NCBI GenBank assembly: GCA_030017475.1
Contig: JASEIO010000001.1
Coordinates: 13,495 to 77,494, forward strand
DNA: 64,000 bases
Direction of reading: 5' to 3'
From: a bacterium
GTDB taxonomy: Bacteria > UBA9089 > JASEIO01
This document shows, piece by piece, positions 12,594 to 17,060 of the stretch. Position numbers and translations under genes: made by a program. The notes under the pieces are model-generated. The model did not search any database and was not told where the DNA came from. It was given only the letters and a program-made list of their open reading frames with translations. Every line of letters begins with the position of its first letter. Position 1 is the stretch's first letter.

Positions 12594-15500
12594 ATGTTAC
12601 AGTCAATGTATAGCGGTATTACAGGGATTAAGACCACTCAGGGGTGGATGGATGTTATTGGTAATAATGTTGCTAATGTTCAATCGATTGGATTTAAGAA
12701 GGATAGGGTTACCTTTGAGGATCTGCTGTACCTGAAGATGAAAAATGCCTATGGACCAAGAGGAGGTCGGGGAGGTGAAAATCCAAAACAGGTTGGTACA
12801 GGTGTATCAAATGCAACCATTCAACATATCCATACATTTGGAGCAAAAGAGGAAACTGGTAAACCTACAGATATGTATATAAATGGAGAAGGTTATTTCA
12901 TCCTAAAGGAGGTAGAATGCCACTTAAAGCACTATACAAGGGCAGGTGCCTTTGATTTTGATGGTGAGGGAAACCTGGTTAACCCATCAAACGGATTCTT
13001 TGTTCAAGGTTGGATGGCAGAGTTAAAAGAGAATGGGCAGCTTTGTATTGATCCAAAGACCAGGGAGTCGATAATCGATATTGGGAAGCCTTTACAAAAT
13101 GTAAGACTTCCTAATAAGTTGTTACAACCTATGGCAACAAAAGGGATTGAGTTTTTGGACATATTGAATAAGGACCAAGAACTTCCAATAGACCCAATAA
13201 GGGTTAGGTTTACCTCTCCTGTTAAGTCAACCGAAGAGGTTGTAAAAAGAAACTATGGATTTGATAAAGAGGGTCGTCTTGTTTATGAGGATGAAGATGG
13301 GTTTTGGTGGTATCGAGATGGGGAGATTGCCACAAAGCCAGATGTTATAAGGAATGAATTGGATACAGCTAAACCTTGGGAAGAAGCAGGATTTGAGCGT
13401 GTTCCAACAGGGGAGGTAACGATAAATGGCGCGACCTTCCGTCTTTCAGATTATAGATTGGTGAATGATTTCATCGAGGCTGTAAATCAGTCAAGTAAGG
13501 CAAATGTAACACTATTCTATGATCAGATGTTGGATAAATGGATATTGAAGAATGATATCCTCGGTAGGGAATTACAGATAGAGGAGAATGTTCCTGAGGA
13601 AAGTGGAGTTGGATTTTTTACAGAGTGTAATATCCCCATAGGGACAATAAAGCCACAGGATATCTTGATTCAATTCAAGCATCTATTCGAGCCACAGAAT
13701 CCAGATAATCTATACTTTAGATTCACCCCTGTCAATCCAGATACCTATGATGAGATAACAACTGAGATTCAATCAACAGGAGAGGTGCAGTACGGTCATG
13801 AAATCTTGGATACAAGTAAAAGGATAGGGGATGCCTTTCTTGAGCACGTACCTGATGGGACGATTACCATAAATGATTATACATCCCGTCCCCTTTCAGA
13901 ATATGCATCCTTGGATGCATTGATGACAGAGATCAACAATTCCCCGGATGCTCGGGCAATACTCTCCTATGATCCGGTGAATGATAGATTTACTCTCCGT
14001 AATAAGATTTCAGGAGAGGATTTGAGGATTGCTGAGAAAACGGTCCCACCCCAAATTGGCGCAAGGGTTGAAGGTAGATTCATTGATGAAGTAAATGGAG
14101 AAGGAAAGGTTGATGGGAAGATTAGAGGACATGTTGATGGGAAGATCCAATATGGTTCAGTGATTGGAACAGTGAGGGGCAGGGTGATTGGGATTTCGGA
14201 AGGAGAGATAGAGGGACATGAAGTAGGGAGGGTAGATGGAGAGATTGAAGGTAAAGGTATGTTTTCTGGCTCAACCGTTGTATTCAATGGATTTGTTAAA
14301 GGGGATGTAACTTCTATAAATCTTGGTACACCCGAGGAGCAGGTTGCATATATCGATGGAAAGATCTCTGGTTCTTCGATTGGAATAATGAAAGGAGATT
14401 TTGGAATAATCCCAGAAGACACTGGAAGGGTTTCCCCTCTATATGCCTATACAAATGTATCCTCCTATGATTTTAAGTTGGATGGAGATATAAAAGGTTA
14501 TTTGGTTGCTGATGGAGAGGTTGAGGGATTAGTGCTTGGGAGTTCAGTTGGAGTAGTGGAAGGTCATGTTCAGGGAATGGCTGGTTCTGCAACTGTTGTT
14601 GCTTCGGATTTAGATGGAGATGGAGTCTTTGATGACCTTACCTGGAGGGTTGATAATGAGGCGACCATAACTGGGGATATAGTAGGGACTGCAGTTGGTA
14701 CAATCAATGGGATAATAACCGGAAAGATATGGGATGTAAATGGAAACTATGTTGGTCAGGTTTATGACCAGCGTGTTGATATGTCAGGAGTGGTATCTGG
14801 AAAGATAAGGAATGCCATAGTTATTGGATGTGCAGTTGGGAATATAGAAGGGAAGATCGTTGGAGAGGTTGGTTCAGCGATTACGCATGGTGGGACCTAT
14901 GCATTGATAGAGGGGAAGATCGTTGGAGAGATTGGAGGGATAAAATATGTTGATGTTACAGGTCATGTCTATGATGATGAGATAAATGACCATATATCAG
15001 CCATAGTCTCTGCAACAGGAGGACTTGTTGGGACAGCAGTTGGATATGTTGTAGGGACAGTTGAGGGAGAAGCCCATGGGAAGATAGAGGGTCTTATAAA
15101 ACATGGATATATATGTGCACAAGATATCGATGGGGCTGGGCAGGTTACAGGAAATATCCTATTTGACGGAAAGATAATAGGTTCTATTTCATCTGCCCTT
15201 GATACCTCAGATGATAAGGTATCAAATACGATTGAGTCGATTGCAGGTGGGGGGGCGCAAATAACGGGTACAATAAAGGGTAATGTCCGAGTTATTGACT
15301 CAAGCCATTCCATAACAGGTGTTGCGAAGGGAGAGATAGAGGCGGTTGAAGATGTTCCAACAGACTTAGGAGATCCATACAAAGATGCAGGGTATGCAAT
15401 TGAGGGTAGGATTGTTGGAGAGATCGATGGTTATGGAAGCATAAGGGGAGATTACAAGGGATATGCCACATGTATTGGGAGGGTTGATGGAAAGATAGAT

Positions 15501-17060
15501 GGGGTGATATCGGCTCCATCCGTGGCTGGTATGGCACCTCCACAAGGTGTTGCCAAGTTTGAAGGTGTAGTAGAGGGGACCATTTCTGGTCATATCGTAG
15601 GTTTTGTTGATGCGTATGTTGTTGGGGTTGGAGATGTAAAGGGAGATATGGACATTACTGGTACGTGTATCGGAACAGTCAAAGGGATGGTTGAGAATTT
15701 AGAAGGGCAGATTAGTCCTATAGTCATAGGAAAGGCTGAAGGTATAGCTGAAGGGGCAATAAAAGGGGTGATTGATGCAGAGGAGATGGAAAAACCTGGC
15801 TTTTTCACTCGGATACATATGCCGCTTGGAGAAAAGAGTGCAACCTCTGGCATATTACAATTGGATTCGGATCCAGAATCGCCTACCTATGGGAAGGTTA
15901 TAAACTGCTTCCGTGATCCAGATGCAAATTCTCGTAATCCAGCCCATAGGTTGAATGATGTATTAGACCTTACATCTGAAATCCCGAATGAGGAGCGCTT
16001 TGATTGGATAAATGAGACGGTTGATGGAAAGAATTTCTTCACAGTGAACATGAATGGCAATGATGTTGCGATATTAATCCCAAATGGTGTATTTGGCCCA
16101 GAGCTTATAAGATTTTCTCCTCTTGAGGAAGAATCTGAAGAGGCAGCATCTTTTTCCATAGTTCAAGAGGTTGAGGAGTTTCCTTATCCAATAATAGAGA
16201 GTGATTGGGCTGAAGGTGGTGAGGCTCGCTTAAAGAAGACAGATGAATATATATATTATACATCCAATAATGTCTATGATTCATTAGGGAATGCATTCAA
16301 TCTAACCTTTAATTTTGAGCGAATGGGAACAAACACATGGCTTTGGTATGCCAGGAATCCAGTTGAGAAGGAGCTTGTTTCTGGATATGGTATAGCAAGA
16401 TTTAATTGGGATGGTACATATAATAAGGAGATATCCAATGTATTTCAATCCCCTTCTGATCCGAGAACCTTTGATGGGGATGATGGGGCAATAACAGGAG
16501 AGACTCAGGGAGAGAAAAGGACAATAGGTTACCAAGGTGTGTATATCGATCCACCAGATACCCCTTATCCAAAGGACCAGGCTGGATCGCCACCAGCAGA
16601 ATATGGTGCAGAGGCGATGAGGATGGATCTTGATTTCTCGAAGCTTCTTCAATATGAAGAGCATGAATCTTCGGCCAAGATAGAGCAAGATGGATGGGGG
16701 AAGGGGGTTTTGCAGAACATAAAATTTAATAGGCTCGGAGTTATGATAGGGGAATATTCAAATGACAAGAACATCCCTTTGGCTCGATTAGCCTTGGCTA
16801 CATTCATTAATCCGAGTGGATTGATGAAAGAGGATGGTACTATGTTCTTGGCTTCACCAAATTCAGGAGAGCCAAGTATTGGAACCCCTGGAACTGAAAG
16901 GAGAGGAACTTTAGCCCCTGGGGCATTAGAGAAATCAAATGTTGATATTACAGAAGAGTTTATAAATATGTTGTTGGCTGAACGGGCCTTTCAGGTTTCA
17001 TCTCGGACAATAATGACAGGAGACCGAATATTAATGGAATTGTTGAGATTAAGACCATAA
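12594..17060 (+). CDS. flgE: giant flagellar hook protein FlgE (~1488 aa) with a ~1100-aa central insertion
   Basis: N-terminus MLQSMYSGITGIKTTQGWMDVIGNNVANVQSIGFKKDRVTFED and C-terminus ALEKSNVDITEEFINMLLAERAFQVSSRTIMTGDRILMELLRL are canonical FlgE D0/D1 segments. A D2-like segment YDSLGNAFNLTFNF is near the C-terminus. ATG 12594 follows GAGGGAGG; the ORF track's TTG 12576 is an upstream extension. Confidence 0.9.
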   Translation: MLQSMYSGITGIKTTQGWMDVIGNNVANVQSIGFKKDRVTFEDLLYLKMKNAYGPRGGRGGENPKQVGTGVSNATIQHIHTFGAKEETGKPTDMYINGEGYFILKEVECHLKHYTRAGAFDFDGEGNLVNPSNGFFVQGWMAELKENGQLCIDPKTRESIIDIGKPLQNVRLPNKLLQPMATKGIEFLDILNKDQELPIDPIRVRFTSPVKSTEEVVKRNYGFDKEGRLVYEDEDGFWWYRDGEIATKPDVIRNELDTAKPWEEAGFERVPTGEVTINGATFRLSDYRLVNDFIEAVNQSSKANVTLFYDQMLDKWILKNDILGRELQIEENVPEESGVGFFTECNIPIGTIKPQDILIQFKHLFEPQNPDNLYFRFTPVNPDTYDEITTEIQSTGEVQYGHEILDTSKRIGDAFLEHVPDGTITINDYTSRPLSEYASLDALMTEINNSPDARAILSYDPVNDRFTLRNKISGEDLRIAEKTVPPQIGARVEGRFIDEVNGEGKVDGKIRGHVDGKIQYGSVIGTVRGRVIGISEGEIEGHEVGRVDGEIEGKGMFSGSTVVFNGFVKGDVTSINLGTPEEQVAYIDGKISGSSIGIMKGDFGIIPEDTGRVSPLYAYTNVSSYDFKLDGDIKGYLVADGEVEGLVLGSSVGVVEGHVQGMAGSATVVASDLDGDGVFDDLTWRVDNEATITGDIVGTAVGTINGIITGKIWDVNGNYVGQVYDQRVDMSGVVSGKIRNAIVIGCAVGNIEGKIVGEVGSAITHGGTYALIEGKIVGEIGGIKYVDVTGHVYDDEINDHISAIVSATGGLVGTAVGYVVGTVEGEAHGKIEGLIKHGYICAQDIDGAGQVTGNILFDGKIIGSISSALDTSDDKVSNTIESIAGGGAQITGTIKGNVRVIDSSHSITGVAKGEIEAVEDVPTDLGDPYKDAGYAIEGRIVGEIDGYGSIRGDYKGYATCIGRVDGKIDGVISAPSVAGMAPPQGVAKFEGVVEGTISGHIVGFVDAYVVGVGDVKGDMDITGTCIGTVKGMVENLEGQISPIVIGKAEGIAEGAIKGVIDAEEMEKPGFFTRIHMPLGEKSATSGILQLDSDPESPTYGKVINCFRDPDANSRNPAHRLNDVLDLTSEIPNEERFDWINETVDGKNFFTVNMNGNDVAILIPNGVFGPELIRFSPLEEESEEAASFSIVQEVEEFPYPIIESDWAEGGEARLKKTDEYIYYTSNNVYDSLGNAFNLTFNFERMGTNTWLWYARNPVEKELVSGYGIARFNWDGTYNKEISNVFQSPSDPRTFDGDDGAITGETQGEKRTIGYQGVYIDPPDTPYPKDQAGSPPAEYGAEAMRMDLDFSKLLQYEEHESSAKIEQDGWGKGVLQNIKFNRLGVMIGEYSNDKNIPLARLALATFINPSGLMKEDGTMFLASPNSGEPSIGTPGTERRGTLAPGALEKSNVDITEEFINMLLAERAFQVSSRTIMTGDRILMELLRLRP

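Follow-up and report, generated by a model that had tools for sequence, protein, structure and literature searches.

A tetrapeptide-periodic tract inside a giant flagellar hook protein

The hook protein FlgE is usually about 400 amino acids long. In the flagellar hook, its D0 and D1 domains lie in the wall of the tube, D2 lies outside them, and insertions in D2 lie further out; the FlgE of Caulobacter, for example, has acquired an extra outer domain, D3, by an insertion of this kind. The FlgE of Campylobacter jejuni, which comprises 865 amino acids including an insertion of approximately 386, has been called one of the longest hook proteins (PMC5069557). Such insertions form extra outer domains, which stabilise the Campylobacter hook through contacts between subunits (PMC5069557 and PMC5097172). 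Among other flagellar proteins, the giant flagellins of marine gamma-proteobacteria exceed 1,000 amino acids through a large insertion in the outer domain and form thick filaments (PMC6248924). Here, we describe a giant flagellar hook protein encoded by the flgE gene at 12594..17060 (+ strand) in a 64,000-nucleotide stretch of the bacterial contig JASEIO010000001.1 (hereafter "the window", to which all nucleotide positions refer), and a tract of 575 residues within this protein that is rich in glycine, valine and isoleucine and follows an x-(I/V)-x-G tetrapeptide rhythm.

How does this protein compare with the described systems? It consists of 1,488 amino acids (161.5 kDa; isoelectric point (pI), 4.6), and is nearly four times the usual size owing to an insertion of approximately 1,030 residues. 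As in the case of the D3/D4 domains of C. jejuni FlgE, a lineage-specific insertion in the D2 region appears to equip a conserved D0-D1-D2 core with outer domains. However, the insertion makes up about 1,030 of 1,488 residues in the window protein, compared with about 386 of 865 in C. jejuni, the two share no sequence similarity, and the Campylobacter domains are globular and not tetrapeptide-periodic. The giant flagellins likewise represent an axial flagellar protein enlarged beyond 1,000 amino acids by an insertion in the outer domain, but they are flagellins of the filament with other domains, whereas a hook must also work as a flexible joint. Extra outer domains of FlgE are already known; what is new here is the scale of the insertion and the domain itself. 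Our literature searches found no description of such giant, tract-bearing hooks, and the tract domain is undescribed, with no match in Pfam or the PDB, among the folds of the PDB and BFVD, or in the literature searched.

The tract and its position in FlgE

The product of the open reading frame (ORF) at 12576..17060 is, on the evidence of its sequence and gene context, the flagellar hook protein FlgE, as a preliminary description made from the DNA alone had proposed. First, three Pfam families are matched above their cutoffs: the D1 segment PF22692 (LlgE_F_G_D1) at residues 102-163 (36.9 bits; cutoff, 27), PF07559 (FlgE_D2) at residues 1220-1373 (48.3 bits; cutoff, 22.7) and PF06429 (Flg_bbr_C) at residues 1448-1492 (42.7 bits; cutoff, 23); the match to PF00460 (Flg_bb_rod) at residues 11-41 is weak (15.5 bits; cutoff, 20.7). 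Second, the protein reaches 248 bits with TIGR03506, the NCBIfam model of the FlgEFG subfamily (cutoff, 70.25). Third, the position of the gene between flgD and flbD-motAB fits membership of a flagellar operon. The mechanically defined ORF (+ strand) opens at a TTG codon at 12576 and is numbered 1-1494. The real start of flgE is the ATG at 12594, which has a GGGAGG sequence 6 nucleotides upstream and is consistent with where the homologous proteins begin; subtracting 6 from the ORF numbering yields the numbering of the 1,488-residue protein.

The insertion can be placed at the junction of D1 and D2, because it is here, at approximately profile position 150, that the FlgE family profiles break. 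The match to TIGR03506 is split into two at this position, covering residues ~7-190 and 1212-1474, of which the latter correspond to profile positions 150-350; in the NCBIfam FlgE models, the N-terminal segment (residues 7-159/192) corresponds to profile positions 1-150/185. The cutoffs of the full-length FlgE equivalogs in NCBIfam are missed (the best model, NF004241, gives 315.8 bits against 469, in two separate stretches) because the insertion of about 1,030 residues splits the match. The preliminary description had regarded the tract as appended to the hook subunit; in fact, it sits inside FlgE, between D1 and D2.

The tract extends over 14070..15794 (+ strand), corresponding to residues 499-1073 in the ORF numbering and 493-1067 of the 1,488-residue protein, and has a mass of 58.8 kDa, a pI of 4.4 and a net charge of about -43. 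It contains 18.6% glycine, 12.5% valine and 11.7% isoleucine, compared with 8.4%, 5.1% and 7.3%, respectively, in the remainder of the protein. The tetrapeptide periodicity that had been noted from the letters alone is supported statistically: the autocorrelation of glycine is 0.44 at lag 4 (z=10.5; 500 shuffles), remains raised at lags 8 (z=5.6) and 12 (z=2.8), and is negative at lags 1, 2, 3 and 5, as well as at lag 6 (-0.06). Glycines follow each other at intervals of exactly four residues in 14 runs of at least three, giving 62 tetrads, whereas shuffled tracts yielded 9.6±4.9 tetrads in runs of three or more and, at most, 26 in 2,000 shuffles. Of the 62 tetrads, 49 have I, V or A at position 2; E, V, D or I predominate at position 3, and T, K, I or E at position 1. 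The array is a broken one, in that the runs account for 248 of the 575 residues (43%) and are joined by linkers with no periodicity.

At the DNA level, the near-repeats mentioned in the preliminary description do exist, in the form of an exact 18-mer, but its copies begin at 14850 and 14913, which corrects the earlier coordinates by 2 and 1 nucleotides. Only 0.01 such repeats would be expected by chance. The 18-mer widens to a local duplication (14844..14936, + strand) of two 29-nucleotide copies, 14844-14872 and 14907-14935, which are 93% identical and each encode IEGKIVGE(V/I)G. Tandem Repeats Finder detected no array in the tract. Because there is a single short duplication and no tandem array of DNA, the repeat appears to be old and degenerate, and not the product of recent slippage. 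We also compared six sub-blocks of the tract with each other by hhalign, obtaining probabilities of 62-96%; these values are not counted as demonstrating a duplication of blocks, since shared periodicity alone would produce them.

The tract is the only feature of its kind in the window. The flgE ORF contains 65 tetrads of glycines spaced by four, compared with seven or fewer in any other ORF of the window, so that the search for similar tracts in other proteins suggested in the preliminary description produced none in the window; the same search in 80 related loci found no tract-like feature, with at most 20 tetrads. A particular resemblance had been proposed to a FapA-like protein encoded in the same flagellar gene cluster. 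The protein at 32650-34290 is a true FapA (FapA_N, E=1e-55; FapA solenoid, E=2.6e-74), and it shares with the tract a beta-repeat region rich in glycine and isoleucine. However, no relation between this FapA (PF03961) and the tract could be detected: the hhalign probability between the window FapA and the tract alignment (A1, described below) is 0.09, FapA contains only 3 spaced-4 tetrads as opposed to 65, and no FapA family of Pfam matches the tract at E<=10. We therefore rejected the interpretation of the tract as a relative of FapA.

Conservation and distribution of the tract

Is the periodic pattern maintained in evolution? We aligned 12 sequences of the tract family (alignment A1), whose identity to the window tract ranges from 31% to 46%. 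The comparison of orthologues proposed in the preliminary description showed that tract length and landmarks are conserved in those relatives that have the tract. Complete homologues have tracts of 571-639 residues, and the landmarks G(E/K)GM.SG....F.G..KGDV, A(W/Y)IDG, GH(V/I)QG(M/L)AG, GEAHG.I.GLIKH..I.AQ, GDYKGY, KFEG...G.I.GH.VG and GQ(I/V)DAE stand in register. The best-conserved landmark, GEAHGKIEGLIKH in the window (15066..15104, + strand), has the family consensus GEAHGEINGLIKHA.I.AQ and includes the almost invariant columns I358, G360 and K363. The periodic glycines are kept in 89% of A1 cells, a figure that is somewhat inflated because MAFFT favours columns of paired glycines, and the autocorrelation of glycine at lag 4 is 0.26-0.37 in all homologues. 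Position 2 is hydrophobic in 75% of cases, and positions 1 and 3 are identical in 24% and 22%, respectively. Some variation occurs at the level of blocks: P0004 and P0010 are without the first ~115 residues of the tract, and P0011 and P0014 have an expansion of ~300 residues.

In a comparison with P0001, the tract is 45% identical (37% when glycines are left out), whereas the other four regions of the protein are 55-61% identical, and the tract is thus, at the level of sequence, the fastest-evolving region of the hook protein. Such faster divergence is expected of a surface-exposed outer domain. Taken together, this pattern bears the signature of a structural repeat, in which buried positions would be constrained and exposed positions would be drifting.

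The tract family is very rare and is confined to uncultured bacteria. An exhaustive HMMER scan with the tract alone as the query, covering 1.84 billion cluster-representative proteins, returned 17 matches. Approximately 14 of these share the tract, and those in which the C-terminus is present end in the FlgE C-terminal motif; the other three are unrelated repeat proteins. One relative, P0001 (1,479 amino acids; E=5e-72), aligns over tract residues 2-572, and further relatives include P0002 (1,536 amino acids), P0003 (1,161), P0005 (1,199), P0004 (incomplete; at least 1,793) and several fragments. The relatives held at NCBI are named "flagellar hook-basal body complex protein [bacterium]", and all come from metagenome-assembled genomes (MAGs). 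Other searches added little to this set. Word-indexed homologue searches with the tract alone or with A1 (8,000 candidates, probably swamped by low-complexity words) gave nothing, and the same type of search with the whole insertion retrieved P0001, P0012 and P0006. With the hook protein as the query, scans of genome and metagenome contigs revealed nothing closely related, a metagenome scan with A2, an alignment of the clade-specific C-terminal part, found distant ordinary FlgE proteins only, and the hook protein had no exact match in a collection of 15 billion proteins. Looking for the window protein, P0001, P0002 and P0012 on contigs by exact match likewise gave nothing. The FliI protein of the window (fliI, 8072-9382) is at best 72% identical to its counterparts among 185,579 species genomes, the matches being unclassified MAGs (Yes70-06, two "Nitrospirota" MAGs, Modern_marine.mb.176 and DeMMO4_10), which places the window in a poorly sampled and apparently uncultured lineage.

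A more distant giant FlgE of 1,512 amino acids is encoded in locus L004 (JAHIZN010000003.1). It has the N-terminal part of the insertion and several modules resembling the Flagellin hook IN motif, and is without the glycine periodicity. The tract is thus a clade-specific module inside a wider group of giant hooks.

Predicted structure and possible role

Structure prediction, also suggested as a check in the preliminary description, pointed to ordered beta structure, not to disorder, when the tract was modelled from an alignment. With the tract as a single sequence, AlphaFold2 (AF2) gave an uninformative predicted local distance difference test score (pLDDT) of 34. With A1, the best model had a mean pLDDT of 79.7 and a predicted template modelling score (pTM) of 0.61, the pLDDT was at least 90 for 267 of its 621 residues, and its low-confidence loops coincided with the sites of insertions and deletions in A1. 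Nearly all of this model is strand, with one short helix at residues 881-890, and the strand runs assigned by DSSP are exceptionally long (85, 67, 43, 42 and 38 residues). These runs could represent flat, glycine-punctuated strands in a two-layer sheet, or a tightly wound solenoid whose corners are assigned as strand; the flat arrangement would agree with the I/V and glycine positions of the tetrad sharing one face of a strand.

The preliminary description had suggested a beta-solenoid or a beta-roll. The beta-rich, ordered part of this suggestion agrees with the prediction from A1, but neither fold is demonstrated, in view of the strand runs of up to 85 residues, the lack of any solenoid super-period in the autocorrelation up to lag 40 among 12 homologues, and the lack of the corresponding motifs in the tract. 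With regard to the latter, we rejected an RTX beta-roll of GGxGxD nonapeptides, since GG.G.D has no match in the tract, and a left-handed beta-helix of hexapeptides ((L/I/V)-G-x4), since no consecutive units are present and the lag-6 autocorrelation of glycine is slightly negative. An alpha-helical glycine zipper (GxxxG), which came into question because the unrelated tetrapeptide proteins P0013 and P0017 match Gly-zipper families of Pfam, was likewise rejected, on the grounds that the tract matches no Gly-zipper family of Pfam, has a beta-prone composition and is predicted as strands. When the PDB was searched with the model by Foldseek, E reached 0.055 at best and TM scores did not exceed 0.11, and a fold search of BFVD gave no meaningful match (TM score, 0.09 or less). 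No solved structure in the PDB is matched by the model, including those of bactofilins, LpxA-type proteins, pentapeptide repeats, RTX solenoids and the Campylobacter hook. Sequence and profile searches of the PDB with the tract retrieved only low-complexity periodic inserts and the bactofilin BacA (2n3d; E=0.095). The tract matches no flagellar or other domain of Pfam at the gathering score, in agreement with the earlier statement that it was not recognisable as a known flagellar domain.

What might such a tract do in a hook? We think it probable that the tract is a genuine, selectively maintained and folded beta-rich domain, which forms the largest part of the insertion of about 1,030 residues. 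The explanation that we favour for its presence, and that seems to us somewhat better than even, is that FlgE has, at its D1/D2 junction, a new outer domain built of repeats, which coats and probably reinforces an unusually thick hook. Like any FlgE, the subunit would be exported unfolded through the flagellar type III channel, and the D0/D1 ends would build the tube of the hook. Because of this unfolded passage, the tract would have to fold outside the cell unaided by chaperones, for which repetitive beta structures are well suited. By analogy with the extra domains of Campylobacter and the known layout of hooks, the insertion would then lie on the outside of the hook, further from its axis than D2. 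The I/V of position 2 and the glycine of position 4 would, in an extended strand, be packed on one face in the interior, and positions 1 and 3, which are variable and mostly charged, would point toward the solvent. With approximately 120 copies of the subunit, a thick acidic outer layer might be produced on the hook, and the most probable effect of this layer would be to reinforce or stiffen the hook by letting adjacent subunits touch each other, as D3/D4, which are far smaller, do in Campylobacter. If such an interlocking outer layer exists, it would represent a new way of tuning hook stiffness, and the tract would interest protein designers as a new repeat fold able to assemble extracellularly with no help from chaperones.

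Four points weigh against the proposal of a reinforcing coat. First, A1 contains only 12 sequences, and the five AF2 models span pLDDT values of 47-80, with a pTM of 0.61; because of this shallow alignment and the variation among models, the evidence for an ordered beta structure is moderate. Second, the load is mechanically awkward: how can a universal joint that bends at each turn still do so with ~110 kDa outside D2 on each of its subunits? Third, the giant FlgE of L004 is without the tract, which is therefore not essential for giant hooks. Fourth, an ordinary second flgE could be present elsewhere in the genome; there is no second flgE in the window.

We also speculate, with little confidence, that the x-(I/V)-x-G tetrads form an undescribed beta architecture, of long glycine-kinked strands or of a solenoid with four residues per side, and that the tracts of neighbouring FlgE subunits pair edge to edge, so that the hook would weave a continuous, elastic beta-sheet sleeve.

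An alternative is that triangular beta-helix modules of the bactofilin type are strung together in the tract, making it a true beta-solenoid, which would stack end to end or side by side between subunits in the way that bactofilins polymerise. Bactofilin (PF04519) is the only Pfam family that recurs in the searches, matching 8 of the 12 aligned tract segments at E<=1 (best E, 2.6e-6); at a cutoff of 27.9 bits, P0009 reaches 27.1 bits and the window tract 12.4 bits (E=0.19), and the A1 profile is the one that retrieves BacA. Bactofilins carry G-x-V-x-G-x-I motifs and so share the periodic alternation of glycine and hydrophobic residues with the tract. However, all of these matches fall under the Pfam gathering score and each covers 50-90 of 575 residues, and periodic glycine/hydrophobic profiles attract each other, as is seen in the low-complexity matches from the PDB. 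The predicted structure also gives no match to solved bactofilins with their three-sided beta-helix, the strand runs are 40-85 residues long instead of 4-6, and the tract has no super-period of 17-18 residues. Finally, bactofilins are cytoplasmic proteins of approximately 100 residues, whereas the tract is an insert of 575 residues that is predicted to be exported. We consider the bactofilin interpretation unlikely.

The role of the tract might instead lie mainly at the surface and not in mechanics, the tract serving as a variable acidic coat of the hook for adhesion, for evasion of flagellotropic phages or for antigenic variation, with paralogous hook genes providing alternative coats. Its acidity, its position as the most diverged part of the protein (even at non-glycine positions), the free variation of the solvent-facing positions 1 and 3, and the block-level differences in length, such as the expansions of P0011 and P0014, are in line with this idea, as is the existence, suggested by accession numbers, of one MAG in which no fewer than three giant FlgE paralogues have the tract, with two adjoining partial copies. 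Against it, the hook, which is approximately 55 nm long in model organisms, is short compared with the filament and hence offers little surface as a target, neither a machinery for diversification nor any hypervariable repeat of the DNA is present, the window has a single flgE, and there is no direct evidence of any ligand. We regard a mainly surface-related role as improbable.

That the tract is a neutral, low-complexity and largely disordered expansion with no function of its own, as the single-sequence prediction, the low-complexity PDB matches and the tract-less giant FlgE of L004 might suggest, is highly unlikely, and has already been largely refuted by the conserved pattern, since homologues at 31-46% identity keep the length, the landmarks and most of the periodic glycines, and it is further opposed by the lack of DNA tandem repeats, by a V/I/T-rich composition that is beta-prone and atypical of disorder, and by the confident prediction from the alignment.

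Flanking regions, relatives and gene neighbourhood

The remaining parts of the hook protein frame the tract as follows. The N-terminal D0/Dc/D1 region (12594..13145, + strand), which is recognised by the NCBIfam and Pfam models, is 61% identical to that of P0001. It is followed by the first part of the insertion (13146..14069, + strand; 59% identity to P0001), which is also present in the tract-less giant FlgE of L004. Two modules in this part, at 13407-13586 and 13854-14039, are 60 amino acids each and 38% identical to each other (E=2e-12). The window copies give no Pfam match to the Flagellin hook IN motif (PF07196), and the equivalent module of P0006 matches it at E=3.4e-4, with 21.2 bits against a cutoff of 22.7; the window modules thus show a resemblance to this motif only, below the gathering score. 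Two such modules open the insertion directly upstream of the tract, but they are flanking modules and distinct from it. Several more IN-like modules are found in P0004 and in the L004 giant FlgE (7106-11641, + strand), and the giant hooks of this group seem to grow by adding them. Downstream of the tract, the last part of the insertion (PGFFTRIH...; 15795..16235, + strand) is a non-periodic, clade-specific linker of 146 residues that has no Pfam match, is 55% identical to its counterpart in P0001 and is kept in A2. D2 and the C-terminal D1 and D0 regions (16236..17057, + strand) complete the protein, as recognised by FlgE_D2, Flg_bbr_C and TIGR03506.

The accession numbers of five relatives are close to each other (MDI6703633, P0001; MDI6703060, P0002; MDI6704454, P0004; MDI6704453, P0012; MDI6703059, P0023), which suggests that one MAG is the source of all five. 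Its genes would include those of three or more giant FlgE paralogues with the tract, of which two would lie beside a further partial copy; the pairs with partial copies are adjacent accessions on contigs of 101 kb and 7.8 kb. The presence of several giant hook genes in one genome is unusual. In locus L081 (ENA ERZ27247117 k141_77757), the FlgE of the P0005 cluster (1,199 amino acids; gene, 2873-6472) lies outside a classical flagellar operon, with genes for MurA, a 296-residue FlgG-like rod protein and a small helix-turn-helix protein upstream, and for a 976-residue Tubulin_2 protein and an HSP70/MreB-like protein downstream. The related fragment P0011 is labelled Patescibacteria at NCBI. In P0016 (102 amino acids), the last ~60 residues of the tract are joined directly to the FlgE C-terminal helix; this mini-protein is probably what a deletion has left behind or a product of faulty assembly. 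The rhythm itself exists in other uncharacterised proteins: the unrelated P0013 (1,180 amino acids) and P0017 (648 amino acids) contain long, near-perfect (G-[ND]-hydrophobic-x)n tetrapeptide arrays, and they match Gly-zipper families of Pfam through periodicity alone.

In the window, flgE has fliJ, genes for an SLT transglycosylase and an MgtE_N-like protein, fliK and flgD upstream, and flbD, motA, motB and fliL downstream. The window operon is co-directional, whereas the giant flgE of L004 lies downstream of fliI on the opposite strand. The gap between flgD and flgE (12263-12593) is 330 nucleotides of AT-rich, non-coding DNA, which is unusually long for a flagellar operon; a scan of this gap with Rfam gave no match, and it could contain a regulatory element or a promoter internal to the operon. 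Apart from the genes of tRNA-Lys(ttt) at 44474-44548 and tRNA-Thr(ggt) at 44609-44684, no RNA gene was detected in the window.

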